From Candidatus Multivoradales bacterium (GTDB taxonomy: Bacteria > Acidobacteriota > Thermoanaerobaculia > Multivoradales > J023): 64,000 nucleotides of DNA. Position numbers and translations under genes: made by a program. The notes beneath the pieces are model-generated. The model saw only the letters and a list, made by a program, of their open reading frames with translations, was not told the DNA's origin and did no database searches. The DNA is taken from NCBI GenBank assembly GCA_965248925.1, contig CBDFLE010000006.1, forward strand, positions 3,360,001-3,424,000. The letters are read 5' to 3'. Positions 4,327 through 27,498 of the stretch are shown here, piece by piece. Position 1 is the first letter of the stretch. The number at the start of each line of letters is the position of its first letter.

Positions 4327-5718
4327 TTAATGGACCAGCCGGGTGTGGCTGTAAGCCGAGTACCAGCCGAACCAGAAGGCGCGGTGGGCCGGAAGTCGGG
4401 GCAGCAGGCGGCCGTCCGCGGTCGCCAGGCGGTCTTCATGCAAAGTCCAGCTAGTGCCGGATTCGTCGACCGCGGTGTGGTCACGATCCCAGCTGGCGAA
4501 GCGCAGGCCAGCGCTTTCGTAGACTCGGGCAGCGCCTGAATTGTCGGTCAGGACGACGAACGGTAGCTCACCGATCTGGTCGTGGTAGAGCGGCTTCTCG
4601 GCCAGGTAGGCGACCGCGATTGCCAGTGGCTGGTCAGGATGTTCGGAGACCTGGATGCCGAGCACTTGGTCCTTATTCTTCAGCCGCTGGTCGAGCTTGG
4701 GAACGCTGAACATCAGCTCGTCGGTGGCGAAGTAGCGCCGATAGGCGGCGCCTTCGGCGTAGTCGCGACGGTGGCCGGTGTCGAGGGATAGCACTTGGGT
4801 TCGCGGATGGCGCCGACGCCATTCGCCCCAGGTGGTGGTGACCACCGAGCGCCGTTCGAGCTCGATGTCTTGGCCGACCAGAGGGCCGATCACCGGCCGT
4901 CCCCACAGTGTGTTCCACAGCGATTGGCTGGCCTGGTCATACATCAGCTTGTTGGAGCGATAGAGGAAGCCGCTGGTGCCGAGGTGGTAGTTGGTTTCGG
5001 CGACGGTGGTCTCGTAGATGATCACCGTGCCACAGAGCGTGCAGTAAACCCCGGCCACCGGCACCGCGCCAACCGTGTCGACGAACATCTCGTGCCAGGC
5101 CAAGATCCGTTGTGGGTAGGCCCGCACATCGCCATTGATCTCGATGCCGAAGACGACGTCCTCATCGTCCAGATAGTCGGCCTCGGCGGCGCTGATCATC
5201 TGCGGCTGGCGCAGCGGTGGGATGCCGTCTTGCGGCACACCGCCCCAGCGGACCTCGTCGAGGCGGATCAAGCTGGTTCGCTGGGAGGAAAAATAGCCCT
5301 TGAACTTGGCATCGATCAGGCTGTAGATCGCCGACTTGAATTCCGCATAAGAGGGCGCCGGCTGCTCTTCTTGCTGCCACAGCCAGTCGTACCATCGATC
5401 GATATCGAAGCTGAAACGCTGGCCGGTCTGCTTCTGTAGCAGGCCGATCAAGCGGCGCTCGACGGCCCGGTCCCGCGACAGGTGGATCACCTCGAGAGCC
5501 ATCGTCACGTATCCGGGCTGCCAGCTGTCGCGGATGGTGTCGTAGGCCGCCTTGTGCTCACCGGCCGGTTCGGTGAGCAAGGTGACGAAGGCACCGGCGC
5601 CGGCTGAGCCATCGGTGGCGGCGGTGCTAGGTGAGTTGGTCTGGGCTTGGCCCAGGCTGGCTATCGAGAGCACAAAGGTAAAGGCCAGGAGGGCTTTTGG
5701 TTGGATCGACATCGTCAC
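4327..5718 (-). CDS. DUF3179 domain secreted protein
   Basis: Signal peptide; WGGVPQDGIPPL, RAYPQRILAWHEMFVD, YCTLCGT, GTSGFLYRSNKLMYD, FWFGW motifs. Confidence 0.9.
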   Translation of the reverse strand: MTMSIQPKALLAFTFVLSIASLGQAQTNSPSTAATDGSAGAGAFVTLLTEPAGEHKAAYDTIRDSWQPGYVTMALEVIHLSRDRAVERRLIGLLQKQTGQRFSFDIDRWYDWLWQQEEQPAPSYAEFKSAIYSLIDAKFKGYFSSQRTSLIRLDEVRWGGVPQDGIPPLRQPQMISAAEADYLDDEDVVFGIEINGDVRAYPQRILAWHEMFVDTVGAVPVAGVYCTLCGTVIIYETTVAETNYHLGTSGFLYRSNKLMYDQASQSLWNTLWGRPVIGPLVGQDIELERRSVVTTTWGEWRRRHPRTQVLSLDTGHRRDYAEGAAYRRYFATDELMFSVPKLDQRLKNKDQVLGIQVSEHPDQPLAIAVAYLAEKPLYHDQIGELPFVVLTDNSGAARVYESAGLRFASWDRDHTAVDESGTSWTLHEDRLATADGRLLPRLPAHRAFWFGWYSAYSHTRLVH

Positions 5719-5801
5719 TCCGGGAGACTCGGTTGCGGAAGATGCTGTTACCTCGTCTGAAGTCTACGTGGCTGCTGGCAGGGGCGGTTCAATTCCTTAC
5801 G

Positions 5802-5823
5802 GGCACCCAGTCGGCACCCAGTC
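5802..5823 (+). repeat. tandem duplication GGCACCCAGTC x2
   Basis: Read directly; starts with the GGCACCC core of the HUH element end motif. Confidence 0.8.
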
Positions 5824-5915
5824 GAAGCCGGTTGGCATAGATGCTGCCCGGAGCGAGTAGAAACTGCCCAAAATTGACCGGTGTCAATGAACACCATTCT
5901 TGACGCCCTTAGGGC

Positions 5916-7350
5916 CTTCTATGTTGCTTCTATGTTGCCACCCAAGTCGGCAGAATCATCGGAGATCGCGGTCTTCCGGCTCTGAAGAACGCAAACTCCT
6001 GCTGTTTGGCGTCTCGATCGGGCGCCTTGATCGACGATTCGTGTCCTTGAGCTTGCGGAAATCTACATTGACAGAGACGGGATGTCACCCGCGCCAACCC
6101 TTTGCGAATCAAGGGCGGACCTCTCCTGTAGAGAGTTGAAGATACTCTCGAACTCGGCCCCTTGCGGGTTGGTTAAGGCGGTGATGGCAACTGTGACGAT
6201 GCTGTCAATCCGTGCGCGCGGGCCGGCCCCGCGCGGCTCCGGGGCTGTCCGGCGCCGCTCGATGTGCATGGGCGCGCAGGCGGAAAGCATCCCGGCGGAA
6301 ACTCCACCGAGTAGTCGCCCGATCGCAGGCGAGTCGCCGCTTCTCGATATGCCTCGACGAACAGGCGGTAAGCTTCCTTCAACTGTTCTCGGACCGCCTT
6401 TGATGCGGCATGCACCACCGGTGCCGGAGACCTCTTAGTGCGCAGAGGACTCTCGTGTGGGTGCTGCTTGCGGATTGCCGTCGCACCCAGAGGTACGGTG
6501 CCGCCAAGCACTACCCTCCGGGCGTTCTTAGCGTCGATTTCCGCGATCATGTCGGAGATCCGCTGGCGGATCTCTGCGGGAGGGAGGTGCTGCCAGCAGG
6601 GTAGGGGATCAAGCTGCAGCGTGTAGCGCTCGATAAAGTCCTCAGGGTCGGTCTCTTTGCCGCGGCGGTTGGCCTCGTATTCGAGGCTGCGGTCGCGCCA
6701 GATCCCTTCGAGGGTTTTGCCTTGGGTGAGAGCCTCGAGACACTGAAGCCCCGGCCAATCCCGGCAGCGTAGCACCAGATGTTCCTTCGCACCGTGACTG
6801 ATCACATACCGAAGCCGGGAGACCATCGCGGCTTCTTCTTCGCTAACTTCGATGGCTCGGAACCGGCGGCCCCAGAATTTTTCTCGCCAGTTGACCCTGC
6901 GGCCAGCCTCGCGGGCGAGATTGCCATTGACGTATTCCATGAAGCCGGACAGATCTTTGATGTCGGTGGCTCCAAGTAGGAAATGGAGATGGTTTCGGAG
7001 CCCGCCGAATGCGTAGATCTTCACCGGGTGCCTCTGCTGGGCGCGGGCGATGATGCCGACCGCAATGCTGCGGAATTGTCCGTCAGCAGGCAGAAGGAAT
7101 CGGCTTTGGAGGCATCGCGTAGTGATTTCGAAAATGGCGCCGCCGGGGCGCAAGTGTCGCAAGAGTCTTGACATACCCCCTGTAGACGGCAAGAGGGTTC
7201 CCAATCTTGACAGTTCGCGGGAGAAAAGTTGGTGGATTGTGCGGTGGGGTGGAGCCGCGGTCCTTTGCGACCGATGTAAGATGCTGAAAACAAGAGAGTA
7301 CGGTTGGGGTGGCACCCCGCTGGCACCCCGCTGGGAGCACCCCGCTGGGA
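5916..7350 (-). mobile_element. RAYT-like (Y1 HUH transposase) element, full copy A
   Basis: Transposase ORF, ~300-bp tail shared with 9581-9905, inverted TGCCACCC(C/A)A motifs near both ends, and end motif GAGTACGGTTGGGGTGGCACCCC followed by tandem GCACCCCGCT units. Confidence 0.8.
6173..7174 (-). CDS. REP-associated tyrosine transposase-like protein (Y1_Tnp/HUH)
   Basis: FEITTRC, HUH motif NHLH, FWGRRF, candidate catalytic Tyr in RLRYVISHG, DWPG, C-terminal FPPGCFPP. Confidence 0.85.
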   Translation of the reverse strand: MSRLLRHLRPGGAIFEITTRCLQSRFLLPADGQFRSIAVGIIARAQQRHPVKIYAFGGLRNHLHFLLGATDIKDLSGFMEYVNGNLAREAGRRVNWREKFWGRRFRAIEVSEEEAAMVSRLRYVISHGAKEHLVLRCRDWPGLQCLEALTQGKTLEGIWRDRSLEYEANRRGKETDPEDFIERYTLQLDPLPCWQHLPPAEIRQRISDMIAEIDAKNARRVVLGGTVPLGATAIRKQHPHESPLRTKRSPAPVVHAASKAVREQLKEAYRLFVEAYREAATRLRSGDYSVEFPPGCFPPARPCTSSGAGQPRSRAGPARAHGLTASSQLPSPP

Positions 7351-7742
7351 ATTTCGGCGGCGCCGGCTCGCAGGACGACAGAGTCCAAGTGATCGCCGTC
7401 CAGGGCGACAGCCACATGGTTCTAGGTGCGGCCGCCGAGATCGCGCCCTACACTTTCGTGCCGGTCGTCGTTCGGCTCGATGGGAGTGGTAACTACGACA
7501 CCAATTTCTCAGGCAATGGCTGGCGTACTTTTCCCGATCCGCCGGGCTATGTACAGCGCGGCACACCGTCGATCGCCCTCCAGCGTGATGGCAACATAGT
7601 AGTCGCTTGCCTCGCCGTGGCGATCGAACCCGACGACAACGATCAGATCTTCAACACCCGTTTGCTGAGTTCCCATGTGCTGTTTGCCGATGGTCTCGAG
7701 AGCGGCACGGTCAGTGGCTGGACTACGTCGGTCGGCGACTGA
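7351..7742 (+). pseudogene. C-terminal fragment of a delta-60-repeat-like secreted protein, truncated at the HUH element end
   Basis: VVRLDGSGNYDTNFSGNG and IALQRDGNIVV repeats; ends LFADGLESGTVSGW; no start or signal peptide after the GCACCC repeats. Confidence 0.65.
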
Positions 7743-7877
7743 CCCGAGAGGTCGGCTCAAGGTGTTGCGGCCAGGGACCCGAGGCCGGCGTGCGGTTTCG
7801 CCTTGCCGAGCGTTTGGTCAAGTATGTCGCTCTGGATTGGCTGGGGCAGCTACTGACCGATGGTTCGGAGGCCGCCC

Positions 7878-9344
7878 ATGTTTGTTTGCAGACTCACGGT
7901 TGCTTTGCTGATTCTCGCTCTCTTCGCCGATCGAGGCTGGTCGGGTGAGATCGGTCAAGTTGGCGCCAACGACTTTCGGATCTCGGACATGGACGGGGCG
8001 CCTTTTGTCGGCATCACGGGGCCTGGCAGCGTCGCTTTCAACACCCTTGATCGGGAGTATCTAGTGGTCTGGTCGGGCACTGCGACGCCGTCGGCGACCT
8101 CCGAGATCTATGGCCAGCGCCTCGACCGCGACGGTTCTCCGGTCGGTGCCCCCGACTTTCGGATCTCGCAACTCAGCCAGGGCAATCCAAGCTTCGGCGC
8201 TTTCTCGCCGTCGGTGGTCTACAACCCACATCGCCGGGAGTACCTGGTGGTCTGGTATGGGCAGGACTTCCTGCTGCCCGACAACGGTAACGAAATCTAC
8301 GCTCAGCGCCTAAGGCCAGACGGCAGTAGCCTCGGGGGCAACTTTCGAATCTCTCAAACAGGCGACGGAACAGCGATATTTGATGCCTTCAATCCGGTTG
8401 CCACCTACAACGGAAACGACTTCGAGTATCTTGTCGTTTGGTACGCCGACCACGGTCAAGGTGCCCTGGTTAATAACGAGTTTGAGATCTACGGCCAGTT
8501 CCTTGACGCTGTCGGTGTAGAGATTGGAAGTGACTTCCGGATCTCCGAAATGGGAGGCTCTGGCGATCCCTCTGATGCTGCTTTTGAACCCGACGTCGCT
8601 TTCGATCCGATCAACGGTTGGTACCTGGTGGTCTGGACGGGTGACGCGGCCGGTGGCGCTCTGGTCGACGACGAGTTCGAAATCTACGGTCAGCTGCTCG
8701 ACGCGACCGGCCAGCAGATTGGTACCAACGACTTCTTATTGTCGGATCTAGGTGGCTTTGGCGACGCCGATTTCGACGCCGGCTCTCCGGCCGTCGAGTT
8801 CCAGCCGGTCACTCGCGAATGGTGGGTTGTCTGGTTCGGAGACGACGACGAGGGAGGGCTGGTCGAGGGGGAACTCGAGATCTTTGGCCAACGGCTGAGT
8901 ATTGCTGGCGCGCAGCTTGGCGACAATGATTTTCGTATCTCGACGATGGGCGGGTTAGGAGCCGCGGGTTTTTTCGCGTTCGTCCCCGATCTGGTTTTCG
9001 ACTCCAGCAGTGACGAAATGTTGGTAGCGTGGTCGGGCAACGAGCAGATCGGCGAAACCGAAATCCACCTGGCGCGCTTACGGGCCGATGGCCTCCTGGC
9101 CGATCGCTCAATCAGGATCTCGGACCTCGGGCCCGATGCCGATCCGAGCTTCTTTGCGGAGGCCCCCGCGCTCGCTTGGAACGAGGTTGATGGCCAGTTG
9201 TTAGTGGTTTGGTGGGGCAATGATGATCAGAGCGCGGGAGTCGCCTCCGATGTCGACATCTTTGGCCAACGGCTCACTCACCCCTTCTTCTGTGATGGTT
9301 TCGAATCGGGTGATTTCGCTGCTTGGAGCCAGGTGACGCCTTGA
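7878..9344 (+). CDS. secreted repeat (probable beta-propeller) protein with C-terminal FxDGFESG tag
   Basis: Signal peptide; ~7 repeats of EYLVVW...EIYGQxLD...DFRIS; ends FFCDGFESGDFAAWS. Confidence 0.85.
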   Translation: MFVCRLTVALLILALFADRGWSGEIGQVGANDFRISDMDGAPFVGITGPGSVAFNTLDREYLVVWSGTATPSATSEIYGQRLDRDGSPVGAPDFRISQLSQGNPSFGAFSPSVVYNPHRREYLVVWYGQDFLLPDNGNEIYAQRLRPDGSSLGGNFRISQTGDGTAIFDAFNPVATYNGNDFEYLVVWYADHGQGALVNNEFEIYGQFLDAVGVEIGSDFRISEMGGSGDPSDAAFEPDVAFDPINGWYLVVWTGDAAGGALVDDEFEIYGQLLDATGQQIGTNDFLLSDLGGFGDADFDAGSPAVEFQPVTREWWVVWFGDDDEGGLVEGELEIFGQRLSIAGAQLGDNDFRISTMGGLGAAGFFAFVPDLVFDSSSDEMLVAWSGNEQIGETEIHLARLRADGLLADRSIRISDLGPDADPSFFAEAPALAWNEVDGQLLVVWWGNDDQSAGVASDVDIFGQRLTHPFFCDGFESGDFAAWSQVTP

Positions 9345-9580
9345 GCACAGGATCGGCTAGTCGCTGGTTGCGGCCAGCTCGCGCACCTTCTTGGGCAATC
9401 GCAAGGGACGGTAGACTTGCTACCCTTCAAGCCGGCCGTAGGCCATGAGCCGCCCGCTGGCGATGCCCTCCGGGGTAGCCTGCACAAAGCCTTCCCAGCC
9501 ACTTTTCATCGCTGACGAGCCTTTGCTCTTAGCGACTGAAGGGCGGTGGATGCCGGTAATCAGCTCGCCTCGCACCAGGG

Positions 9581-10030
9581 CTTCTATGTTGCCACCCAAG
9601 TCGGCAGAATCATCGGAGATCGCAGTTCTCCGGCTCTGAAGAACGCACACTCCTGCTCTTTGGCGTCTCGGTCGGGCGCCTTGATCGAGGGTTTGTGACT
9701 TTGAGCTTGTTGAAATCGTCTTTGCCAGAGACGGGAGGCCAGCCGCTCTAACTCATAGGCGTTTCTAGGGTAGACCTCTCCTGTGGAGAGTTGAAGTTAC
9801 TTTCGAACTCGGTCCCTTGCGCTTTGGTCAAGGCGGTGATGGCAACCGTGACAACGTTGTCTATCCGGGCGAGCGGGTTGGACCCGCACGGCTACAGGGC
9901 TGTCCGGCGTTGCTCGATATGCCTCGACGAACAGGCGGTATGCTTCCTTCAGCTGTTCTCGGACCGCCTTTGACGCGGCATGCACGGCTACGTTTGGGGT
10001 GGCACCCCGAGGGCAGGCACCCCGAGGGCA
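9581..10030 (-). mobile_element. non-autonomous, internally deleted copy B of the RAYT-like element
   Basis: Homologous to 5927-6415 with a deletion between CTCGAT microhomologies, then joined to the end motif TACGTTTGGGGTGGCACCCC; GGCACCCCGAGGGCA x2 at 10001-10030. Confidence 0.85.
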
Positions 10031-10132
10031 GGATCTCTTGGCGTGGCCAAAGGCACATGCAGCTGCGCTCCTGTGGCATACTCACTAGGTATTTTCCACC
10101 ATCGAAATCGCTCATCGTCGTAGGGACCCCAG

Positions 10133-10750
10133 GTGAGTCGACTGCCAGCCGAGGCCGGGAGTGCTAGCGACCCGATCGCTGCCGCCATCGAGGCGTTTCA
10201 GCGTGGTGTTGATCGCGAGCGCAGCTTCCGGACCATCTTCGAGCGCTTCCACGCGCCCGTCAGGCGCTTCTTCGCCCGTCGCGGCGTGCCGGCCGAGGAA
10301 TGCCCCGATCTAACCCAAGAGGTGTTTCTCGGGATTTATCGTGGACTGGCGAGCTGGCGGCCGGAGGCTCGTTTCGAAACCTGGCTGTTTCACATCGCCA
10401 ACACCACCTGGCTGAAGCGCTTGCGTCACCAGGCGGCGAACAAACGCGCCGGCATCGAGCTGGCGACCGACGATATCGAAGCGTTCGAGCCCGCATTGTG
10501 GCTGGCGGATCGGCAACTCGACCGGCTGCTCGACGGCGAACGCCAACAGGCTTTGCATCAGGCCGTGACCGAGCTTCCCGCGCAGATGCGTAAGTGCTTG
10601 ACTCTGCGGCTCTACCACGACTTGAAGTACCGGGAGATCGCCAGCTTGCAACGGATCTCGCTGGACACCGTGAAAGCTCATCTGTTCCAAGCACGGCAGA
10701 AGCTCAAGCTCAGGCTGAGCGATTTTGCCACCGAGGAACTGCCTTGGTGA
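10133..10750 (+). CDS. ECF RNA polymerase sigma-70 factor
   Basis: DLTQEVF, FETWLFHIANT, LKYREIA, TVKAHLFQARQKLK. Confidence 0.95.
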   Translation: MSRLPAEAGSASDPIAAAIEAFQRGVDRERSFRTIFERFHAPVRRFFARRGVPAEECPDLTQEVFLGIYRGLASWRPEARFETWLFHIANTTWLKRLRHQAANKRAGIELATDDIEAFEPALWLADRQLDRLLDGERQQALHQAVTELPAQMRKCLTLRLYHDLKYREIASLQRISLDTVKAHLFQARQKLKLRLSDFATEELPW

Positions 10751-11553
10751 GCGGGAGGAACGAAGTGGAGAACACCGATCATCGTGCCCTGCGCGCGGCG
10801 CTGGCAGACGAGGCCAGTGGCGGTGATTTGTTGGCCGCTCACCCCATTGCCGACACTTTGCTGGCCTATCTCGAGGGCACTCTGGAGGGTGCCGAGGCGG
10901 AGCGGATCGCGGACCACTTGGTGGCTTGCCGCGAGTGTGGACGGGCAGCGATCGATCTTGGTGACTTCGCATCCGGCGAAACCGAGGAGGTTGCGGAGTT
11001 CGCTACCGTCGCCGCTTGGCGGGCTTTTAAGGAACATCTTCCAGAGCAGGACGCAAGCGCCCGATCACGACCCAGTCCGAATTCCCGATCCACCCTTCAC
11101 TGGCCGAGCCGGGCCTTAGCGGCGAGCCTGGTGGTGGCATGTCTGGGTTTGCTGCTGTGGGGCGGTGCCTTGCGGCGCTCGTTGGGCCGGGCCGAAGCGA
11201 CGGTTGTCGAGTTGGAGGCGGCCCAGCTCGAGGTGCCGATCCTCTATCTCGAAGGCGCCGTGCGCGATCAGGCGGCAGCGGTGGCGGAGATTGCCCGAAG
11301 GGCTGGTCCGGGCCGATTCTTGATCGTCCTGACACCGCCGCCAGGAGCCTCGTTCAGGGGCTTGGCAGTCGAGGTGGTGGATTCGGTGGGGCGGCCCCTG
11401 TGGTCGGCCAGTGACCTCGACTTGAGTGAGTACGGCACCTTGCGAATCGGGCTGTCTCGGGCTCAACTGCCGGCTGGCGACTTCTTGTTGCTGCTGCGTG
11501 ATCGATCTGGTGACCTGCTGGCCGAGTATCCACTGCGATTGTCCGATCACTGA
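10747..11553 (+). CDS. zf-HC2 membrane anti-sigma factor
   Basis: HLVACREC zinc motif and one TM helix; GTGA overlap with the sigma stop. Confidence 0.85.
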   Translation: MSGRNEVENTDHRALRAALADEASGGDLLAAHPIADTLLAYLEGTLEGAEAERIADHLVACRECGRAAIDLGDFASGETEEVAEFATVAAWRAFKEHLPEQDASARSRPSPNSRSTLHWPSRALAASLVVACLGLLLWGGALRRSLGRAEATVVELEAAQLEVPILYLEGAVRDQAAAVAEIARRAGPGRFLIVLTPPPGASFRGLAVEVVDSVGRPLWSASDLDLSEYGTLRIGLSRAQLPAGDFLLLLRDRSGDLLAEYPLRLSDH

Positions 11554-11564
11554 GGGGTCGAGGC

Positions 11565-14500
11565 TTGCCGGCCAGGTACCTGCAGCTTGCCGTCTTCTCG
11601 CTGCTTTGCTGGGCGCTCCTCAGCGGCTGCGCCCCGCCCGCGGTCCACACCGATTCAAGCCAGCCCGGCCAAGCTGCCAAGACCTTGGTGGCCGGAATGC
11701 AGCTCGAACAAGTGCCGCGAGATGCCGACGATGCTCGGACTTTCATCGTCGAGATGCAAGCGGGCGACTACCTGCAACTGCACGTCGAGCAACTCGGTGT
11801 GGATGTGCTGCTGCGGCTGTCGTCGCCAAGTGGCTTACCCCTGCTCGAAGTCGATAGCCCGACCGGTCGCCAAGGTTTTGAGCGGCTGTATTTTGTGACC
11901 TCTGAGAGCGGTTCTTATCTTCTGCGAGTGGAGCCCTTTGCTGCACCCGAGATGGGTGGTCACTTCGTGCTGCGGGTCGAAGCGCAGGGCTTGGCCTCAC
12001 CGCGACAGCGCTTGCAGGCCGCCGCGGCGGCGGCGGAGTGGGCGGCACGGGTAGAGTCTGAGCCGGCCGAGGTGCGCGCTCATCTGCGGCAGGCGTGGCG
12101 TCTGTGGCAGCAAGCGGCGGCCCCCGCGGCGGTGGCTAATGTCGAGATGCAACTGGCGGAGCTGGATCAGCTCGTGGGGCACATCGATGCCGCCAACACC
12201 GGTTTTCGCAGGGCCGCCGCGGGCTTCGAGGTCGCCGGGGAGCCGCTGCAGCAGGCCACCGCGCTGCTCAGTCTGGGGTCGATGTATTACCGCTTGGATC
12301 GCTTGCCCGAGGCCATTGCGGTTTACCGTCTGGCGTTGGCGCCGGCCGCGGCTTCGACCGGCAGGCATCTCGAAGCAGATTTGCTCTTTAACCTGGGCAC
12401 CAGCCATCTGCTGCGCGGCGAGTTACAGCAGGCGCTCGACTACCACGAGCGCGAGGCCGCGGTGCGAGGCGAGGCCGAAACGATGGCCGAGCGGGCCGAG
12501 CGGCTGCACAACCTCGGCATCCTCAACTGGCAACTCGGTCGCTGGCAGCGGGCGGTGGACCTGCTGAGCGAGGCTGTTGGACTTTTTGCTCAGCTCGGCG
12601 ATCAGCGAAGGTGGGCCAACAGTCTGGTGCAGCTGGGAGAGGCACAGCGCAACCGCGGTGAGCCGGAGGCGGCTGAGGAGAGCTACCTCCAAGCCCTCGC
12701 CATTCAACGCCAGCTCGACTCAAGCCGCGAGCTTTCGACCACTTTGGTTGCCCTGGGGCTGCTGCACAAGGAAAACGGCCGTCTGGAGAGTGCCCGTGAA
12801 CTCTACCTGGAGGTTCTGGAGCGCAGCGCGGAACTCAGCCGAGCCGATCGCGCCACCACGTTGCACAACCTGGCGGCGATCGACCGCGCTCAGGGTCGGC
12901 CCGAGGCTGCGCTGCGGCGCTCTGTTAAGAGCCTGGCGCTGCATCGCCGGAGCGGCAGCGTTCACTTGCAGGCCCATGCCCTGGTGGGTTTGGCGGCGGC
13001 AGAACGTCAACTCGCCTTGCTGACCGAGGCTCGGCGGCATCTGGAACAGGCTTTGGAACTCTTTGAGTCGACCCGTTACGCGGTGCTCACCGCTAGTCGG
13101 CGGTCATCGTACCTGGCCACTGTGCAGCCGCACTACGGCAACTACATCGACTTGCTGGTCGAGCTCGGTGAGCCGGCGGCGGCGCTAGCGGCGGTCGAGC
13201 GCTCTCGAGCGCGCTCATTGCTCGATGCCTTGAGCCTTGCGGCGCTGGCGGTTGACGGTGAAGAGGATGCTGAGCTGCTGGCCGCAGAAGAGCGGGCCCG
13301 AGGCCAAGTTGAAGAGCTGGCGGCGCGCCGCCAAGCGCTCAGCCTGCGCGCGGTCGCGCCGCCTGACCTGCTGCCGCGAGTCGAGGCCGACTTGCGGCTG
13401 GCGCTAGACCGGCTGGAGGTGGCCAGCGATCGGCGGCGAGCAGGGAACCCCCGCTACCGCGAGCTGACCCGGCCTCGACCGCTCGATGTCGGCTCGATTC
13501 GGGGCTTGCTCGATGCCGACACCCAGTTGCTGGAGCTACATTTGGGCGAACGCCGCAGTTTTCTCTGGCTGGTGGATGACCAAAGTCTCGAACTCTTTGA
13601 GTTGCCACCGGCGGCTGTTCTAGAGCAGGCCGCGCGCGCCGCCTATCTGGCCCTGGGGCGCAGTCACCACCGCGAAGGCCATCGTCAGGCTGAGCAGGCT
13701 CTGTGTGATCTTTCGCGGCAGCTACTTGGTGTGGTCGGAGAGAGTCTGAGGGCTCATCGATTGGTGATGGTGGCGGATGGCGCGCTGCGCTACCTTCCTC
13801 TGGCGGTGCTTCCGGACCCTCGCCAGCTGGCCGCCGCCTGCGATGGGGTGGTACCCCTGGTGGAGAATTTCGAAGTTGTCAGCCTACCCTCAGTTTCGGT
13901 GTTGGCCGAAATACGGCGTGGCCACCGCGGGCAGGATCTGGGACTGCCGAGTTCGCCGACGCTGGCCGTGCTAGCCGACCCGGTGGTTGCTGCCGACGAT
14001 CCGCGGCTGAGGGGGCTGTTGCAGGATACAGACCTACCGTCGGCGTCGGCTGGGCTACGTCGCTTGCCCTTCTCTGGCCAGGAAGCGGCCACAATTCTGG
14101 CCCTGGCCGAGGCGGACTCAGGTTGGTCAGCGTTGGCGTTTGCCGCCGCCAAACCGGCACTGGCCGATCCCCGACTGATGGCTGCGGACATCGTCCACTT
14201 TGCGGTCCACGGAGTGCTCGACAGTGAGCATCCGGAGTTGTCCGGACTGATGTTGTCGCGTTTCGACCGCGGTGGTCAGGCACGCGACGGATTCTTGAGT
14301 GTCCACCAAGTCTACAACTTGCGTCTCGATGCCAAGTTGGTAGTGCTGTCGGCGTGTCGTACAGCGCTGGGGCGGGAGATCCGAGGCGAGGGTCTGGTGG
14401 GTCTTACCCGTGGATTTATGTTTGCCGGTGCCGAGCGCGTGCTGGTCAGCCTGTGGAATGTCGACGATGCGGCCACCGCCGAACTCATGGAGCGGTTCTA

Positions 14501-14633
14501 TCGTGCTCTGTTGCACGACCACTTGCGGCCCTCGGCGGCGCTGCGTCGCGCACAACTCGAATTGCGCCGCCAGCCGGGCCGTCAGGCACCTTTTTTTTGG
14601 GCTGGTTTCGAGTTACAAGGCGATTGGCGATGA
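11565..14633 (+). CDS. TPR-CHAT (caspase-like) protein, lipoprotein-like N-terminus
   Basis: Lipobox LSGC, PPC-like domain, TPR repeats, CHAT dyad HFAVHG and LSAC, FWAGFELQGDW end. Confidence 0.95.
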   Translation: MPARYLQLAVFSLLCWALLSGCAPPAVHTDSSQPGQAAKTLVAGMQLEQVPRDADDARTFIVEMQAGDYLQLHVEQLGVDVLLRLSSPSGLPLLEVDSPTGRQGFERLYFVTSESGSYLLRVEPFAAPEMGGHFVLRVEAQGLASPRQRLQAAAAAAEWAARVESEPAEVRAHLRQAWRLWQQAAAPAAVANVEMQLAELDQLVGHIDAANTGFRRAAAGFEVAGEPLQQATALLSLGSMYYRLDRLPEAIAVYRLALAPAAASTGRHLEADLLFNLGTSHLLRGELQQALDYHEREAAVRGEAETMAERAERLHNLGILNWQLGRWQRAVDLLSEAVGLFAQLGDQRRWANSLVQLGEAQRNRGEPEAAEESYLQALAIQRQLDSSRELSTTLVALGLLHKENGRLESARELYLEVLERSAELSRADRATTLHNLAAIDRAQGRPEAALRRSVKSLALHRRSGSVHLQAHALVGLAAAERQLALLTEARRHLEQALELFESTRYAVLTASRRSSYLATVQPHYGNYIDLLVELGEPAAALAAVERSRARSLLDALSLAALAVDGEEDAELLAAEERARGQVEELAARRQALSLRAVAPPDLLPRVEADLRLALDRLEVASDRRRAGNPRYRELTRPRPLDVGSIRGLLDADTQLLELHLGERRSFLWLVDDQSLELFELPPAAVLEQAARAAYLALGRSHHREGHRQAEQALCDLSRQLLGVVGESLRAHRLVMVADGALRYLPLAVLPDPRQLAAACDGVVPLVENFEVVSLPSVSVLAEIRRGHRGQDLGLPSSPTLAVLADPVVAADDPRLRGLLQDTDLPSASAGLRRLPFSGQEAATILALAEADSGWSALAFAAAKPALADPRLMAADIVHFAVHGVLDSEHPELSGLMLSRFDRGGQARDGFLSVHQVYNLRLDAKLVVLSACRTALGREIRGEGLVGLTRGFMFAGAERVLVSLWNVDDAATAELMERFYRALLHDHLRPSAALRRAQLELRRQPGRQAPFFWAGFELQGDWR

Positions 14634-14715
14634 AAAGCAGGGAGCCGGCTAAACCCTTCGGCAGGTTTTGGATTCGAGGCTGCAGAAGACTGGATATGAC
14701 AAAGGAGCGAAGCCG

Positions 14716-15189
14716 ATGAGTGACCCCCTACTAGCGCCCTACGAAAAGATCCTTATCAACACAGAACTCGACCTGGTTCGCTTGGCTGAGCAGGTGACCC
14801 AGCAGGGCCGCTGGCTCGAAGTGGGCGGTGTCATGGTGGCCCTCGAGCTGGTGCACCGCGGTCGCCAGACGCTGCCGGGTTGGGACATCCAACCCTCCAA
14901 TCCGGAGAAAGTCGATCAGATCACCATCCCACCGCCCGACCCCTCTGGATTGATCGGCGAGTTGCCCCACCGTCCGGCGGCGGATTTGCTCGAAGCCGCA
15001 CTGGCCGACTTGCTCGAGCTGCTCAGAGTTGCCGCTGATAGAGAAGATCGCCTGCCGCTCAATGCTTCTCTTCCGGCGTTGCTGCTGGTCGACCGCGCCC
15101 GCCGAGCGGTATCCGGACAGATGGCGGGTGGCAGAGGCGGTGCCAAGGTCGAGCCGCCGGCGCCGATGCCTCCTGATCCCGGTAGCTGA
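14716..15189 (+). CDS. hypothetical protein, two internal repeats ending in PPDP
   Basis: RBS AAGGAG; halves end EKVDQITIPPPDPS and AKVEPPAPMPPDPGS. Confidence 0.7.
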   Translation: MSDPLLAPYEKILINTELDLVRLAEQVTQQGRWLEVGGVMVALELVHRGRQTLPGWDIQPSNPEKVDQITIPPPDPSGLIGELPHRPAADLLEAALADLLELLRVAADREDRLPLNASLPALLLVDRARRAVSGQMAGGRGGAKVEPPAPMPPDPGS

Positions 15190-15316
15190 GAGGCCACTCT
15201 TCTCATCCCATCTCTCGGTCCGGGCCGGGCAGCATCGCTTCCCGGGGTCGGATTGTAGCCAACCAGATGGCAGTGATTCCTTCGCCAGACGACTAGCCCT
15301 TACCTGGAGCACGACC

Positions 15317-15460
15317 ATGACGATCAAGATTCCCAAAGATCCGGCAGGAGAACTGCCGGGCGGTCTCGCAAAGCGCCCCCCTCCGCGGACCTATGACGGC
15401 CCGATGCACCCCGCCAAGCTCCCGCCGCCGACTCCGCCGCCGGTGGACAATGGCGGCTGA
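15317..15460 (+). CDS. 47-aa Pro-rich small peptide
   Basis: RBS GGAG; MTIKIPKDPAGELPGGLAKRPPPRTYDGPMHPAKLPPPTPPPVDNGG; followed by a strong hairpin. Confidence 0.55.
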   Translation: MTIKIPKDPAGELPGGLAKRPPPRTYDGPMHPAKLPPPTPPPVDNGG

Positions 15461-15468
15461 GCAGAAGC

Positions 15469-15506
15469 CGCGGGCATTCGCCGGTGATTGGGCGGGTGCC
15501 CGCGGG
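15469..15506 (+). terminator. GC-rich stem-loop after the small peptide gene
   Basis: CCGCGGGCATTCGCC / GGCGGGTGCCCGCGG; no U-tract. Confidence 0.5.
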
Positions 15507-15703
15507 GTCTGCGACGAGATCGCGGTGGGTCGACAGAGGTGAAGGGCTAGAGTGCGAGTGAGTGCTCCCTACCGGTTCGCCGTCAGGTCCGCAGAGCGAT
15601 GCGCGGATAGACCCAGCTGCTGCATCGCCCGCTGGTCGCTCAGCCGCGGCTCCGGAAGAGCCGATCTAGGTTCTACTTCAGGGTGCCATGAGCAGGACAT
15701 GCC

Positions 15704-16084
15704 TCACGCCTGCAACCACAGCAAGACGGCGAAGATCAGCACTGTCGCGGTGACGAAGCTCTGCACCCAGCGGTGGCCTTTGAGCACCGTCAACCGGGCG
15801 CCGAGGGCGCCACCGACCATGGTGCCGGCGGCTAGCGCCAGGCCGTAGCTCCACCACACCTTGCCGTGGTAGGCGAAGACCGCCAGGGCGAGGCCGGTGA
15901 GACAGAGGATGGTGAGCACTTTGACCGCGTTGCCGCGCACCATGTCGAGGCCGGCGGCGGTGGTGGCGGCGAGCACTAGAAACCCGACTCCGGCCTGGAC
16001 GAAACCACCGTAAGTGCCGACGGCGAAGAAACCCGCGGCAAGGGCCAACGGGTGCGCCGGGCCGGTCACTGGTTGGCTGGGTGC
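15704..16084 (-). repeat. 381-bp direct-repeat copy of the 3' half of the TauE/SafE gene (26740-27120)
   Basis: Aligned by eye with about 10 substitutions, five in the last ~50 bp of the gene. Confidence 0.95.
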
Positions 16085-16390
16085 GAGTACGGTTTGGGTG
16101 GCACCCTGAGAGGGCTATGCGCCGCCCCGAATCTCCTCTGCCGGCAGATGTCGCCAGCAGGTAGAAGGAATCGGCATTGGAGGCAGTGCGTGGTGATTTC
16201 GAAGGTGGCGCCGCCGGGGCGAATGTGTCGGAGATGTCTTGCCATACCCTCTCTCGACGAGGAGAGGGTTGCCAATCTTGCGGTTTGGAGGAGAGAAAGC
16301 TGGCGGATTCTGAGACCGACTGGGAACGCTGTTCCTGGCCTGTCGGATAAGTTGTTGAAAACAACAGAGTACGAGGTGGGTGGTGCCCTT
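16085..16390 (-). mobile_element. copy C of the RAYT-like element: two end motifs plus N-terminal transposase fragment (16149-16245)
   Basis: MARHLRHIRPGGATFEITTHCLQCRFLLPAGD vs copy A MSRLLRHLRPGGAIFEITTRCLQSRFLLPADG; motifs GAGTACGGTTTGGGTGGCACCC (16085) and GAGTACGAGGTGGGTGGTGCCC (16367). Confidence 0.85.
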
Positions 16391-17520
16391 GTGGGCGCCG
16401 ATGCCTCCTGATCCCGGTAGTTGACCTTCAGATCGTCACTTTGGCGAGCCAAGTGAGGTCGGTTTGCCAAGAACGGCGCAACTTGACCTCGCGCTCGAAC
16501 ATAACTGGTGTTTTCCGCAGGAGTAGCGTGTAGGGGCTGCCGCTGCGGCGTGTGGTGTGGCCTACTGGCAGCTCGTGCTGGTCGAGCCTTTCATGCACAT
16601 GCCTTCGTCCTTGCTTGGCAAGTGGCCATTCGAGTTCCTGCCGCGATGGACTGGACAGAAAACGGCGGAGTTTGGCGCAGAGCCGACAGTGGCAATCTGT
16701 CGGTAGATCGATGGACCAATCACCCGGCTTGCGGGGAGCTGAAGTGAGCTGCGCCTTCAGCCGCCGTTGACAGATTTGCTGGATGGCGGTGAGGGCAGGG
16801 GAGGTCTTCCATTGGGTTGGTTTCTTCCGCCCAGCAGTCCGCAGTAGTTGCATCAAGCAAGGGTGCAGCGCCGCATTCTTCTTGAGGCGAAGAAAGGCCA
16901 CTACTTCGTTTCGTAGAGCTGCCGCCCCGCTGGCCGCGGCACCTTCGAGGATGCCGAGGATCGGCTTGGCGAGAGCCTTCACCTCACGCTCCTGGATGCT
17001 AGGTCTCATACCGCAGCGTAGAGTTTGCTGTATTTCCTTTCTCAACCATGCCCAGCGCTCTTCTAAGAGCAGCTTCGCACACCTTCGACCCCGAGTACTG
17101 ATGGCACCTAGGGACGCGCACAGGTGGGGTAGTGAGCCGAGCCAAGTAAGTGGGTTCCGTTGGCGGTAATCCTGCTGGGCGGCCCACTGTGAGAGTAGGG
17201 ACCTGGTCCAGTCTTCGCCATAGCCCTTGGCCAGCGCTATCCAAGCGGACGCACACCTCGCTCTGAGGTCCTCGACGCAGAAGGGTTCGAGGAGGCCAGT
17301 GGCCAACGCTGGGCTGGCCAGAGCCTCGGCGACTTGCAGAGTTTGATCGAAGAATCCACGACGTTTCTCGGCCGGGACGGTCTCTGCCCAGAAAGACATC
17401 AGAGAGGTGGCCAGATCCTGGGCCTCGGTGAGCTTGCCACGGCGCAGGTGCTGCCTCAGGCTTTGTAGGGCCCAGGCGGGCGGAATGTGTCAATGAGAAT
17501 GAGACACTTTCTTCTGGGAA

Positions 17521-18642
17521 TTAGTACGGAATCGGTAGTGGCTCCGGCACCATCGCTTTCAACGAGGGCGCGCAGGCAGGTGTCTCGCCTGGTGCGTCGT
17601 CGTCTACGCGGTGTGTCACCTCGTTCTCGGTATCGGCTGGGTCAGTGCTGGTGGTGGTGATCGGCGGGTTGATCCAGACCTCGCCACTGGGCTCCGGCAA
17701 AGCCGGCGTTCGCCGCTTGAAGCGGCTCGGATGAGCGGCTGAGGCGGCGGCGAGGACTTCTCGACGTTGCTCCAGCACTGAGGCCGTGAGGCCGTAGTGG
17801 ACGGTCTCTGGCGTCAACAAACCGAGTCCTGTGTGGTAGTGCTGCGTGTTGTACCAGCCGAGGAACGAGCGGCAGAACGCTCGTGCATCTTCCAGTGATC
17901 CGAAGCGGTCGGGAAAGCTCGGATGGTACTTGAGCGTCTTGAACTGGGCCTCAGAGAACGGATTGTCGTTGCTCGTGTAGGGCCGGTTCAGCGACCGTGT
18001 CATCCCGAGATCGGCCAGCAGTAGAGCCACTGGCTTGGATGTCATGCTCGAACCGCGGTCCGAGTGCAAGGTAAGTCGATCTCGCTCAACACCTTGCTTC
18101 TCAACACTGTCGGCGATCAACCGCTTCGCGAGTCCTCCGGACTCGCGGGAGGCGAGCATCCAGCCGACGATGTAGCGGCTGAAGACGTCCAGAATTACGT
18201 AAAGGTAGTAGTAGGTCCACTTCACCGGGCCCTTGAGCTTGGTGATGTCCCACGACCACACCTCGTTCGGCCCTGTGGCCAGCAGTTCGGGCTTGGTGTA
18301 GTTGGGATGACGCCGCTGACGGCGTCGCTCGCGCAGCTCGCCCTCAGACTCCAGGACCCGGTACATGGTGCGCACCGAGCAGATATGGCGCTGGTCCTCG
18401 TCCAGCAGCGCCGCCCAGACTTGACGCGGCGAGCGGTCGACGAAGCGCTCCGAGTGCAACACATCGAGGACCTCCTGGCGTTCAGCGGGCGTCAATGCCA
18501 GCGGCGGTCGACGCCGCGTCAATAGTCTCGGCCCTGCGCTCTGCTGCCGACGGCGGCGATAGAAAGTGGCTCTGGGGACCGCCAAGGCGACGCAGGCTGC
18601 TTGCACCCCCACCGTCAATGCCAGCGGCGCCACAGCGCTCAT
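17521..18642 (-). CDS. IS3 OrfB DDE transposase
   Basis: WSWDITK, HSDRG, NDNPFSEAQFKTLK motifs. Confidence 0.95.
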   Translation of the reverse strand: MSAVAPLALTVGVQAACVALAVPRATFYRRRRQQSAGPRLLTRRRPPLALTPAERQEVLDVLHSERFVDRSPRQVWAALLDEDQRHICSVRTMYRVLESEGELRERRRQRRHPNYTKPELLATGPNEVWSWDITKLKGPVKWTYYYLYVILDVFSRYIVGWMLASRESGGLAKRLIADSVEKQGVERDRLTLHSDRGSSMTSKPVALLLADLGMTRSLNRPYTSNDNPFSEAQFKTLKYHPSFPDRFGSLEDARAFCRSFLGWYNTQHYHTGLGLLTPETVHYGLTASVLEQRREVLAAASAAHPSRFKRRTPALPEPSGEVWINPPITTTSTDPADTENEVTHRVDDDAPGETPACAPSLKAMVPEPLPIPY

Positions 18643-26676: not shown

Positions 26677-26739
26677 GAGCTCCCGGGCAGCCGCCGCCAC
26701 CTGGGAGCATTCATGCGCTGCGTCACTCAGCCACTATTC

Positions 26740-27498
26740 TCACGCCCGCAGCCATAGCAAGACGGCGAAGATCAGCACCGTCACGGTGACGAAGCTCTGC
26801 ACCCAGCGGTGGCCTTTGAGCACCGTCAACCGGGCGCCGAGGGCGCCACCGACCATGGTGCCGGCGGCTAGCGCCAGGCCGTAGCTCCACCACACCTTGC
26901 CGTGGTAGGCGAAGACCGCCAGGGCGAGGCCGGTGAGACAGAGGATGGTGAGCACTTTGACCGCGTTGCCGCGCACCAAGTCGAGGCCGGCGGCGGTGGT
27001 GGCGGCGAGCACTAGAAACCCCACTCCGGCCTGGACGAAACCACCGTAAATGCCGACGGCGAAGAAACCAGCGGCAAGGGCCAACGGGTGCGCCGGGCCG
27101 GTCGCTGGTTGGCTGGGTGCCGATTGGCCGGGGCGTAGAGTCCATAGGGTGATGGCGACCATCAAGCCGGCCAGCAGGCGTTGGAAGGCGCGGTCGCTGA
27201 TCTCTAGCGCTGCCCAGCTGCCGAGGGCGGCGCCGAGGGTGGCGGGCAATGCCGCCCACAGCAGGGAGCGCAGATCGAGCAGGCCGTAGCGCTTAAAGCT
27301 GTGCACCGCCGAGACGTTCTGCAGCAAAATCCCCACCCGGTTGGTGCCGTTGGCGATACCGGGCGGCAGGCCGAGGAAGATCAGGGTCGGCAGGGTGATG
27401 AATGAGCCGCCGCCAGCGAGGACGTTGAGAGTGCCGCCGATCAAGCCGGCGCCGGCCAGGAGCACATAGCCGGTCCAATGACCGTCGAGAGCCTGCAT
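26740..27498 (-). CDS. sulfite exporter TauE/SafE family protein
   Basis: LAGGGSFITLPTL, ANGTNR, GIYGGFVQAGVG; multiple TM helices. Confidence 0.9.
   Translation of the reverse strand: MQALDGHWTGYVLLAGAGLIGGTLNVLAGGGSFITLPTLIFLGLPPGIANGTNRVGILLQNVSAVHSFKRYGLLDLRSLLWAALPATLGAALGSWAALEISDRAFQRLLAGLMVAITLWTLRPGQSAPSQPATGPAHPLALAAGFFAVGIYGGFVQAGVGFLVLAATTAAGLDLVRGNAVKVLTILCLTGLALAVFAYHGKVWWSYGLALAAGTMVGGALGARLTVLKGHRWVQSFVTVTVLIFAVLLWLRA

Follow-up and report, generated by a model that had tools for sequence, protein, structure and literature searches.

Exact short tandem duplications starting at TG^GCAC recur beside Y1/HUH element ends in a Multivoradales genome

The window analysed here is a stretch of 64,000 nucleotides from Candidatus Multivoradales bacterium. 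Three copies of a TIRYT/RAYT-like Y1 (HUH) element lie in it, of which one is intact and two have decayed. The parts of these copies are as follows, with ^ marking the putative cut:

5937..5952, minus strand: DOWN-end motif, an inverted copy of the UP-end motif (minus strand CCGACTTGGGTGGC)
6173..7174, minus strand: Y1/HUH gene, 333 aa, with HUH motif N61-H62-L-H64 and Tyr123
7277..7317, plus strand: UP-end motif ..GAAAACAAGAGAGTACGGTTGGGGTG^GCACCC, cut between 7311 and 7312
9580..10007, plus strand: gene-less internal-deletion derivative of the element, its 3' part 81-93% identical to 5926-6415
16085..16120, plus strand: end motif A, GAGTACGGTTTGGGTG^GCACCCTGAGAGGG
16128..16388, plus strand: remnant of a third element, a Y1 N-terminal fragment with a degenerate end motif B (16348-16388)

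The 3' part of the gene-less derivative is fused directly to an UP-end motif at 9989-10007, and the Y1 fragment of the third copy is 74-76% identical to 7081-7302. The end motif TACGKTTKGGGTGGCACCC occurs three times in the window, where shuffled sequence gives an expectation of 0.04. No TnpB partner was seen beside the Y1 gene within the window.

The Y1 protein passes the curated threshold of Pfam Y1_Tnp (PF01797; 33.6 bits against a cut-off of 23, residues 40-120). H62, H64 and Y123, with the whole N61-H62-L-H64 motif, are invariant in 10 and in 25 homologues, and a profile built from homologues matches ISDra2 TnpA (motif region, E 1.4e-5) and E. coli TnpAREP. The AlphaFold2 model (pLDDT 85.6) has 4ER8_A as its best PDB fold match (E 1.5e-5, TM(target) 0.72, rmsd 2.8 Å), followed by ISDra2 and IS608 TnpA. 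The intact HUH and Tyr motifs, Pfam score, profile and predicted fold all make the enzyme look active. Its score with the NCBIfam model for RAYT/TnpAREP (NF047646) is 44.3 bits, under the cut-off of 80. The C-terminal domain of ~170 aa could be assigned to no known family, and its model is confident but lacks a clear PDB match: the C-terminal parts of four members gave no Bac_DnaA_C, HTH_23 or HTH_28 match up to E 10, and what they did match was weak and far under the cut-offs, the nearest in kind being HTH_32 (E 2.1, one member).

Short tandem duplications lie at or near these ends:

5802..5824, plus strand: GGCACCCAGTC x2.1, 11 nt x2, 100% identity, phased CG^GCACCCAGTCG x2
5916..5938, minus strand: CTTCTATGTTG x2, the last 11 nt of the gene-distal (DOWN) end, duplicated exactly
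7312..7350 (array 7310-7350), plus strand: three nested units of 11 + 14 + 14 nt, each starting GCACCCC
10002..10031 (span 10001-10032), plus strand: GCACCCCGAGGGCAG, 15 nt x2.1, 100% identity, at the end of the gene-less derivative

All units of the 7310-7350 array can be phased to G^GCACCCC, and the cut of the 15-nt duplication falls between 10001 and 10002. The minus strand at 5916-5938 reads GGGTG^GCAACATAGAA x2, so the cut position is the same as elsewhere and only the next bases differ (GCAAC). This duplication, at the other end of the same element, is a fifth case that was absent from an earlier note on this DNA; the one at 5802..5824 is at a solo pseudo-site ~115 bp beyond the element. 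The earlier note had listed the duplications at 5802, 7311-7350 and 10001 together with the start of a tauE copy, and all four items are present in the sequence. It gave them a common start at GCACCC, of which GCAC(C) stands, the DOWN end duplicating from GGGTG^GCAAC. It also had three of the four abutting the end motif, which is correct for 7311 and 10001, where the start lies inside the motif's last six bases, and applies to the tauE copy only loosely.

The same note had considered that the short units might be assembly stutter. An assembly or sequencing artefact at low-complexity ends is hardly credible: all genome-wide counts do come from one assembly and the read evidence from contigs of one sample, but the independent unitig assembly of four runs matches three window regions exactly, the same junctions are found in independently assembled MAGs of other genera, and the units consist of complex sequence as opposed to homopolymers. 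The contigs in question, Logan contigs of four runs from one sample and one study, which is possibly the sample behind the genome assembly itself, cover 5700-5955, 5940-9609 and 9594-10100 with 0 mismatches and 0 gaps, minor variants being invisible in contigs. The window duplications are thus not stutter of the deposited assembly.

The phenomenon is much larger than the four window items. The 7.98 Mb genome, counted in a single assembly, contains 318 exact tandem duplications with a period of at least 10, and 86 of these can start at GCAC, ~60 times the genomic GCAC frequency; 55 can start at GGCAC and 53 at GCACC, against 21 for the next 5-mer. Among phase-unambiguous duplications 11 of 75 start exactly at GCAC, where 0.68 would be expected. 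The genome-wide enrichment count that the earlier note had suggested is therefore strongly positive, and its central observation, a site-specific process that starts duplications at G^GCAC beside Y1/HUH gene ends, holds as an enrichment beyond chance.

The start site lies within GTGCCWGGCAC or GGGTGGCAC(CC) motifs. Across 68 unique events, G occupies position -1 in 64 and position -5 in 57, T occupies position -6 in 46, and position -2 has T in 46 and A in 13, which leaves (T/A)G^GCAC(C), with GTG at -7..-5, as the invariant part. The unit length is 11-16 nt in 64 of the 68 (mode 15; over all TG^GCAC sites there is one unit each of 8, 9 and 17 nt and none of 10 nt), and 61 of the 68 have two copies. 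The sizes are hence not 'very different', as had been proposed, and what is duplicated is not chiefly flanking DNA: it consists mostly of the 12-13 nt at the outer edge of the element or REP, with 0-4 nt of flank. Homology between near-identical element copies is lost exactly 12-13 nt past the cut (in five copies that are 92-100% identical, the right-hand boundary falls at precisely 12 nt), and because it ends there the range of unit sizes agrees with the natural termini. The duplications are young, since their units are 100% identical while the proteins of full-length element copies share 76-78% identity.

On the strand reading TG^GCAC, the units are invariably found 3' of the cut. At the 70 palindromes, the top strand has 16 feasible duplications that run outward from cut position 7 and the bottom strand has 9 that do so from position 4, and inward ones are almost wanting (2 and 1), so the constant side of the junction is the DNA 3' of the cut. 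The palindrome GTGCCWGGCAC is present at 70 sites, against 3 for a reversed control, and GGGTGGCAC in 212 strand readings; REP-like single sites and arrays of the motif are also scattered over the genome. Of 140 strand readings of GTGCCWGGCAC, 24 have an exact duplication at the cut, as do 20 of 212 of GGGTG^GCAC, compared with 0 of 157 for ten composition-matched 5-1-5 control palindromes; random positions, judged less strictly, score in 49 of 20,000 cases.

Could such duplications arise with no enzyme, by replication slippage or template switching at small palindromes, where a hairpin stalls synthesis and the strand realigns on 1-3 nt of microhomology? Many of the sites are indeed palindromic, and the distal junctions are rich in G^GC, a 1-3 nt similarity to the start: units end in G in 44 of the 68 events and are followed by GC in 24, a pattern that microhomology-driven repair would also yield. 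The genome further contains 119 two-copy events of the same size (11-16 nt) that do not start at GCAC. We nevertheless consider slippage unlikely, as in 32 of the 68 events the perfect stem spanning the cut is shorter than 4 bp (e.g. GATGTTTG^GCACC), the control palindromes carry no duplications, motif classes that differ in their stems share a start exact to the nucleotide, the size window is sharp and the direction is outward only. Microhomology is absent on the left in 20 of 68 events and on the right in 29 of 68, which also speaks against slippage; however, 34 of the 119 ordinary duplications have none either, so microhomology fails to separate the two classes. Reciprocal deletion products, which are hard to recognise, were looked for and not found.

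The link to Y1 genes is both structural and positional. The genome has at least 11 Y1 genes (11 Pfam matches) in three diverged subfamilies of 38-100% identity, plus fragments, and the inverted ends of at least 11 of them are built from the cut-site motif, each subfamily having its own variant as terminal inverted repeat. All five copies of subfamily A, 76-78% identical, have ..GGGTG^GCA.. inverted at both ends (one end GGGTGGTCC). The flank before the sites is TACGNNT, CATAAK or AAAAG/AATAG, and GTAG (or GTRG) is absent. Fifteen of the 68 events lie within 1 kb of a Y1 match, against 0.53 expected; the other 53 belong to solitary REP-like sites and to arrays of the cut-site motif. The duplication at the gene-less derivative 9580-10007 is what would be expected if the enzyme acts in trans.

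This association extends to relatives. At 24 Y1 loci of other Acidobacteriota there are 36 tandem duplications, of which 18 have GCAC as their start, preceded by ..TG, and the same junction is seen beside Y1 homologues of 40-70% identity in other genera. The palindrome is in 10-90-fold excess in many Y1-positive relatives, and the excess is absent in five of six genomes that lack a Y1 match. The duplication load differs between genomes: G001 has 262 palindromes, yet none of 30 sampled readings had an exact duplication (1/30 under a tolerant criterion), and in an unbiased 800 kb of G031 one of 19 tandem duplications starts at GCAC. Some other sequence-specific nickase or recombinase might act at TGGCAC, with the Y1 elements merely sharing or targeting its motif. 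It would account for the 53 events more than 1 kb from any Y1 match, for the motif excess in G002, a fragmented MAG with no Y1 match, and for the wealth of sites and scarcity of duplications in G001. We think this improbable, given that the motif forms the terminal inverted repeat of three diverged Y1 subfamilies in a separate variant each, that the same junction adjoins homologues in other genera, that the junction polarity fits HUH chemistry, and that an unsystematic look identified no alternative candidate enzyme.

It is also conceivable that the repeats are selected as functional arrays, for protein binding or transcript structure, and that their common start is the selected feature and not a cut. 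Arrays do reach five or more units (e.g. 39-nt units at C6:765089-765234), and passages of PMC8266576 propose cellular roles for REP arrays. Selection is compatible with any mutational mechanism and is in this sense not a full rival: it creates no duplications, and it leaves unexplained the nucleotide-exact starts at 68 unrelated loci, the outward-only geometry and the events at the decayed elements of the window. With only two copies in most events as well, we judge selection very unlikely as the source of the pattern.

Two further junctions in the window join the end motif to DNA from elsewhere:

15703..16085, minus strand: copy of the last 382 bp of tauE, starting ^GCACCCAGCC on the minus strand
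16394..16424, plus strand: 31-nt patch, a 97% copy of 15159-15189, starting at G^GCGCC
26739..27120, minus strand: source of the tauE copy, in the intact gene (26740..27498, minus), with CG^GCACCC where the copied stretch begins

The tauE copy is 97.4% identical to 26739-27120 over 382 bp, and both its minus-strand start and the corresponding point of the intact gene (CG|GCACCC) are as the earlier note had described them. Its junction lies 17 nt past the GGGTG^CCAC of end motif A, and it stops 3 nt from the inner edge of the third motif copy, on the opposite side of the motif. For the 31-nt patch the junction lies 12 nt past the GGGTG^ of end motif B. The tauE piece is a different type of event from the short duplications, an ectopic junction and, judging by its 97.4% identity, an older one.

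Several known systems share parts of this behaviour. IS200/IS605 enzymes (IS608, ISDra2 TnpA) have the same Y1 fold and motifs; their ends are cut at a fixed distance from a subterminal hairpin, with the insertion point set by a short sequence, and here the homology between copies ends 12-13 nt beyond the palindrome. Unlike theirs, the ends here are inverted repeats, and the lagging-strand template bias usual for ssDNA transposases of this type is not seen (35 vs 33 events). When pT181 replication terminates, the tyrosine of its initiator (RepC*) retains ~10-12 nt of the sequence immediately 3' of the nick, a natural ruler similar in size to the duplications here, and Helitrons and IS91 capture neighbouring gene fragments, to which the tauE piece is similar. 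The enzymes of pT181, IS91, ISCR and Helitrons are Y2 or Rep-type and serve circular replicons or one-ended transposition; we would not attribute a replication role to the present element from its sequence.

Among the closest described systems are TIRYTs and their TIRtrons (Di Nocera et al. 2013, PMC3733652), which passages of Quentin et al. 2018 (PMC6006769) equate with TnpAY1 subclass 2.1 and RAYT group 1 of Bertels et al.; an Acidobacteria-specific TIRYT group has been described. With the element here they share a long Y1 protein with an extra C-terminal region, a gene between terminal inverted repeats in place of GTAG REPs, and repeats that also form moderately abundant families in dimers and clusters. 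The published consensus GGGGWSAS is matched only approximately here (the window UP end GGGGTGGC has one mismatch; other copies have TGGGTGGC), and the C-terminal HTH families named for subclass 2.1 are those that our searches did not find. Passages of the two papers give no cut site, 11-16 nt unit or anchored micro-duplication. E. coli TnpAREP, the best structural match (4ER8), likewise has inverted palindromic repeats on both sides of its gene. According to passages of Corneloup et al. 2021 (PMC8266576), its ssDNA cleavage takes place close to a hairpin, after which the enzyme keeps the 5' end and can link it in vitro to any 3'-OH, and E. coli REPs form tandem clusters with flanking DNA, like the repeats here. 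TnpAREP cuts C|T, 5' or 3' of a GTAG-tagged hairpin, whereas the predicted cut here is inside the palindrome at TG^GCAC and the GTAG tag is absent. RAYTs are, moreover, typically single-copy (domesticated), in contrast to the Y1 genes of this genome.

We propose, with a probability of roughly 0.6, that the Y1 enzyme cuts TG^GCAC and retains the 5'-GCAC end, which it then links to a 3'-OH located 11-16 nt further downstream. The enzyme would bind the motif ..GTG-N4-G^GCAC.. and cut one strand between (T/A)G and GCAC, keeping the 5'-GCAC end on its tyrosine as other HUH enzymes do. In most events the receiving 3'-OH would be on the same strand, at that distance of 11-16 nt and so close to the end of the element or REP. 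It could be supplied in two ways: an enzyme dimer may make a second cut at a degenerate G^GC site 11-16 nt away, the short excised piece being reinserted at TG^GCAC, or the nick's own 3'-OH may be extended with strand displacement and the break resealed. Any choice between these routes would be inferential. Either would give an exact tandem duplication of the terminal half-REP, repeated rounds would give nested units and REP arrays, and ectopic patches, namely the 31-nt patch and the tauE piece, would come from occasional joining to 5'-GC(A/G)CC ends at other places.

Junction polarity fits HUH chemistry, since the constant side, 3' of the cut, is the side that the HUH tyrosine holds. TnpAREP in vitro fuses any attacking 3'-OH to the DNA 3' of its cut, as reported in passages of PMC8266576. 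Against the enzyme reading weigh the even split of events between the replication strands, the similarity of the distal junctions to the cut site, the unequal load of G001 and G031, the motif excess in G002, the missing reciprocal deletion products and the low NCBIfam RAYT score. The earlier note had a RAYT-like enzyme nicking at G/GCACCC; the site-anchored process at Y1 ends is upheld, while for the Y1 protein as the cutting agent we infer a role from the association and the junction polarity. The note's impression that this is not described RAYT behaviour also agrees with the literature searched, in which we found no description of anchored micro-duplication at Y1 repeats.

The duplications thus look like a natural footprint of cutting and rejoining by the Y1 enzyme. 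Dozens of nucleotide-exact junctions predict its cut site, (T/A)G^GCAC, its polarity, an 11-16 nt ruler and action in trans, and they suggest how short repeats, and now and then pieces of genes, come to be added beside Y1 elements. For annotation, about a quarter of the exact tandem duplications of at least 10 nt in this genome can be treated as one class. A broader view, that this Y1 clade cuts inside its own palindrome, that joining at ruler distance grows REP-like arrays and that the same joint captures foreign DNA, is one we hold only tentatively and with more doubt than belief. Passages of PMC8266576 and PMC6006769 describe the proliferation of REPs and BIMEs and the cellular role of RAYTs and TIRYTs as poorly understood, and note that the 3'-OH may prime replication or serve strand transfer. 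If joining at a ruler distance is the true reading, the genome sequence alone would yield the cut site, polarity and spacing rule of an unstudied HUH enzyme, and would offer a concrete mechanism for the long-open proliferation of REP/BIME clusters.

The duplications that the earlier note had described at 5802, 7310-7350 and 10001, and the partial copy of tauE, are all present in the window sequence as described. These four items are real, but the list was incomplete, since an exact 11-nt duplication at 5916-5938 had been missed. The junction of this duplication falls at the same place relative to GGGTG as elsewhere, but the next bases are GCAAC. The features around the Y1 element, whose inverted terminal motifs are termed the UP and DOWN (gene-distal) ends, are as follows, with ^ marking the inferred cut:

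5802-5824: tandem duplication, GGCACCCAGTC twice
5916-5938, minus strand: exact 11-nt duplication at the DOWN end of the same element, GGGTG^GCAACATAGAA twice
6173..7174, minus strand: Y1/HUH open reading frame, 333 aa
7310-7350: three nested units
9580-10007: gene-less internal-deletion derivative, MITE-like; element 3' part, 81-93% identical to 5926-6415
10001-10032: 15-nt unit twice, exact

The window has three copies of the 19-nt end motif, where 0.04 would be expected. Logan contigs (from four runs of one sample in one study, possibly the source sample of the assembly, and of a kind that hides minor variants) match three window regions with 0 mismatches and 0 gaps. The units are therefore not stutter of the deposited assembly, a possibility that the earlier note had raised against itself. 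Elsewhere in the window, positions 49465-49500 hold an exact 12-nt tandem repeat in three copies, TGGCGAGCACTG; a GCAC-start phase is possible for it, but it is preceded by GA and is not site-like.

We scanned the host genome (7.98 Mb, 6 contigs, 62% GC), of which the window is C6:3360001-3424000, for all exact tandem duplications that have two or more full copies and a period of 8-100 nt. The scan returned 766 duplications, 318 of them with a period of at least 10 nt. The predicted genome-wide enrichment of GCACCC-type starts was found: among these 318, a start at GGCAC is possible in 55 and at GCACC in 53, and the next 5-mer reaches 21. A GCAC start is possible in 86, about 60 times the genomic GCAC frequency, and GCAC is the exact start of 11 of the 75 phase-unambiguous events, where 0.68 would be expected. 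Dropping paralogous duplicates and array-internal rows reduced 99 records to 87 and then to 68 unique events phased to start at GCAC. Two copies are present in 61 of them, and the commonest contexts are GTGCCTG^GCACC, GTGCCAG^GCACA, ATGTTTG^GCACC and GGGTG^GCAC.

Site profile of the 68 events, by position relative to the cut.
-1: G in 64
-2: T in 46, A in 13
-5: G in 57
-6: T in 46
-9: A in 44

Duplication load by site class.
GTGCCWGGCAC (70 sites, 140 strand readings): exact duplication at the cut in 24/140
GGGTG^GCAC: exact duplication at the cut in 20/212
All TG^GCAC: exact duplication at the cut in 56/5045
Ten control palindromes: exact duplication at the cut in 0/157
Random positions (looser criterion): 49/20,000

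The geometry of the duplications is strongly polar. At the 70 palindromes, rightward duplications start from cut position 7 (16 feasible) and leftward duplications end at position 4 (9 feasible), with almost no mirror-image duplications (2 and 1). This outward-only pattern places the duplicated DNA on each strand 3', and never 5', of the cut, and the cut just 3' of the central CWG. The perfect stem across the cut is shorter than 4 bp in 32 of the 68 events, so the constant feature is TG^GCAC with GTG at -7 to -5 rather than a strong hairpin.

Comparison of element copies shows where the elements end. Two close copies of subfamily A, the Y1 copies like the window gene, have 13 nt (UP) and 11-12 nt (DOWN) in common beyond the cut and then diverge. 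In five copies of the diverged family C (92-100% identity), homology breaks off precisely at the end of GCACCTATTTCT, 12 nt beyond the cut. Both the elements and the REP-like units therefore stop 12-13 nt past the cut, and the duplicated unit is that terminal half, plus or minus a few flank bases. The description of these events as variable-length duplications of flanking DNA holds for the site-fixed start but not for the rest, as 64 of the 68 units are 11-16 nt long (mode 15) and the duplicated DNA is mostly the element's terminal half. Longer units, of 39-64 nt, span one full site up to the TG of the next. The distal junction is also non-random: the unit ends in G in 44 of 68 events, and GC follows it in 24 of 68.

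The 333-aa protein scores 33.6 bits with Pfam Y1_Tnp (cut-off 23) and 44.3 with the NCBIfam RAYT model, under the cut-off of 80. H62, H64 and Y123 do not vary across 25 homologues. A single-sequence PDB search gave no match; a profile built from the homologues matches ISDra2 TnpA and E. coli TnpAREP, and the top structural match of the protein model (pLDDT 85.6) is 4ER8, with a TM-score of 0.72. The C-terminal ~170 aa returned nothing significant in Pfam and no clear PDB fold match. Residues ~150-300 are modelled confidently as a domain, with invariant P192, C193, W194, H255, F292, P293, F297 and P298. Inverted copies of ..CGNNTTGGGTG^GCA.. flank the Y1 gene, and the genome holds at least 11 Y1 genes, of which five are 76-100% identical to the window copy at the protein level and the others 38-44%. 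The family-C Y1 copies form the right end of a ~7-kb repeat, whose left boundary, on inspection, bears no site motif. Those at C5:692970-701482 and C6:3632690-3638146 are interrupted by other insertions, and at one interruption the flanking query ranges overlap by 7 bp.

The duplications are associated with Y1 genes. Fifteen of the 68 events map no more than 1 kb from a Y1 match, a zone that makes up 0.77% of the genome, against 0.53 expected, and the gene-less derivative likewise bears a duplication. The earlier reading, site-specific nicking by a Y1/HUH enzyme at G/GCACCC, finds partial support in this proximity and in the enrichment of starts at GCAC, but the constant part of the site is TG^GCAC and not GCACCC.

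Y1 homologues were found in 35 of 41 related genomes searched. The relatives are Acidobacteriota / Thermoanaerobaculia MAGs, and none of the 40 compared is of the same species or genus. Across 24 Y1-homologue loci from other genomes (~84 kb, in which locus L019 repeats the region of L002), half of the exact tandem duplications (18 of 36) have a GCAC start preceded by ..TG; start variants are TG^GAAC and TG^GCGT. Many relatives show a 10-90-fold excess of the palindrome relative to its reversed control, and five of the six genomes with no Y1 match have no such excess, the exception being genome G002. Genome G001, with 262 palindromes, of which 15 were sampled, had an exact duplication in 0/30 readings and one in 1/30 under a tolerant criterion, and only one of the 19 tandem duplications in an unbiased sample from genome G031 (contig 1, first 800 kb) has a GCAC start. 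The duplication load therefore differs widely between genomes. The spacing between successive GGCACC motifs was discarded as a cross-genome statistic, as its peaks at 12 and 15 (48 and 37) stand on a codon-periodic background.

Several other explanations were considered. GC skew gave a clean signal, with a putative origin at C6 ~2.70 Mb (cumulative minimum) and a putative terminus at C5 ~0.78 Mb (maximum); the window, at C6:3.36 Mb, lies ~0.66 Mb from the putative origin. Restriction to the lagging strand is unsupported, as the events split 35 vs 33 across the replication strands. Microhomology averages 2.56 for GCAC-start events vs 3.66 for others, and the overlapping distributions make it an indecisive discriminator. 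Room for repair-based rivals comes chiefly from this lack of replication-strand bias and from the short stretch of similarity seen at the distal junction. The search for reciprocal deletions lent no support: left half-sites ATAAKGTGCCTG lacked a following GCAC in 2/56 cases, both point variants, and left half-sites AAWAGGTGCCAG in 12/46, at least six of which continue CCRATTCRC, resembling another conserved repeat, while a third left half-site pattern was too unspecific to interpret. An origin in restriction or very-short-patch repair at the central CCWGG fits neither the GGGTGGCAC and GTTTGGCAC classes, which are without CCWGG, nor the cut position. Footprints of REP-targeting DDE insertion sequences were rejected because the duplicated unit, of 11-16 nt, belongs to the repeat itself.

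The window also contains displaced pieces and decayed elements:

15686-15703: 18-nt filler that separates the tauE piece from a solo terminal segment (minus strand, TG^GCACCCTGAAG)
16107-16388: third, decayed element (remnant 16128-16388), bounded by two outward-facing end motifs
16394-16424 and 15159-15189: 31-nt repeat, 97%

The tauE copy at 15703-16085 matches 26739-27120 over 382 bp with 97.4% identity. Read on the minus strand it begins GCACCCAGCC, and the same point in the intact gene (26740..27498, minus) is CG/GCACCC. At two window junctions, those of the tauE piece and of the 31-nt copy of 15159-15189, a distant 5'-GC(A/G)CC end is attached at a point that lies 12 or 17 nt beyond GGGTG^; these two cases are suggestive, and no more, of ectopic joining at such ends. 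The second copy of the 31-nt repeat starts G^GCGCC, with the GGGTG^ of a degenerate end motif 12 nt before it, and the first is the 3' end of the open reading frame 14668..15189. The filler has no second genomic copy, even with up to 2 mismatches allowed. In the gene-less derivative, the element 3' part runs straight into an UP-end motif, and the derivative has its own 15-nt duplication. The Y1 N-terminal fragment of the third element has an internal deletion, apparently between two CAGCAGG repeats (equivalent to 6593-6600 and 7082-7088). A 494-aa open reading frame at 7860-9344 has internal repeats every ~183-186 nt (modules of ~61-62 aa) and no family in Pfam or NCBIfam. Positions 17481-19121 are a 96% copy of a 1.64-kb insertion sequence that the genome carries over 25 times, and a second, of 1.83 kb, is similarly abundant elsewhere in it.

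Among the closest descriptions are TIRYT/TIRtrons, with an Acidobacteria group (PMC3733652), and TnpAY1 subclass 2.1 (PMC6006769). The passages of the literature that were covered gave no account of the fixed start nucleotide, the unit-size window or the polarity.

Every junction has the same form, some 3' end joined to 5'-GCAC. HUH enzymes keep the 5' end of the cut strand on their tyrosine and are able to transfer it to any 3'-OH, as is reported for TnpAREP in vitro (PMC8266576). We consider cutting and rejoining by the Y1 enzyme the best explanation, with a probability of roughly 0.6. On the most economical reading, the enzyme would cut at TG^GCAC and then reseal to a 3'-OH located 11-16 nt downstream. 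One possible source of this 3'-OH is a second, degenerate cut at the terminus of the element, after which the short piece would be reinserted at the site; the other is that the 3'-OH of the nick itself is extended by strand-displacement synthesis. As far as sequence tells, the two routes have the same outcome. The observation itself is confirmed, and it generalises beyond the window.
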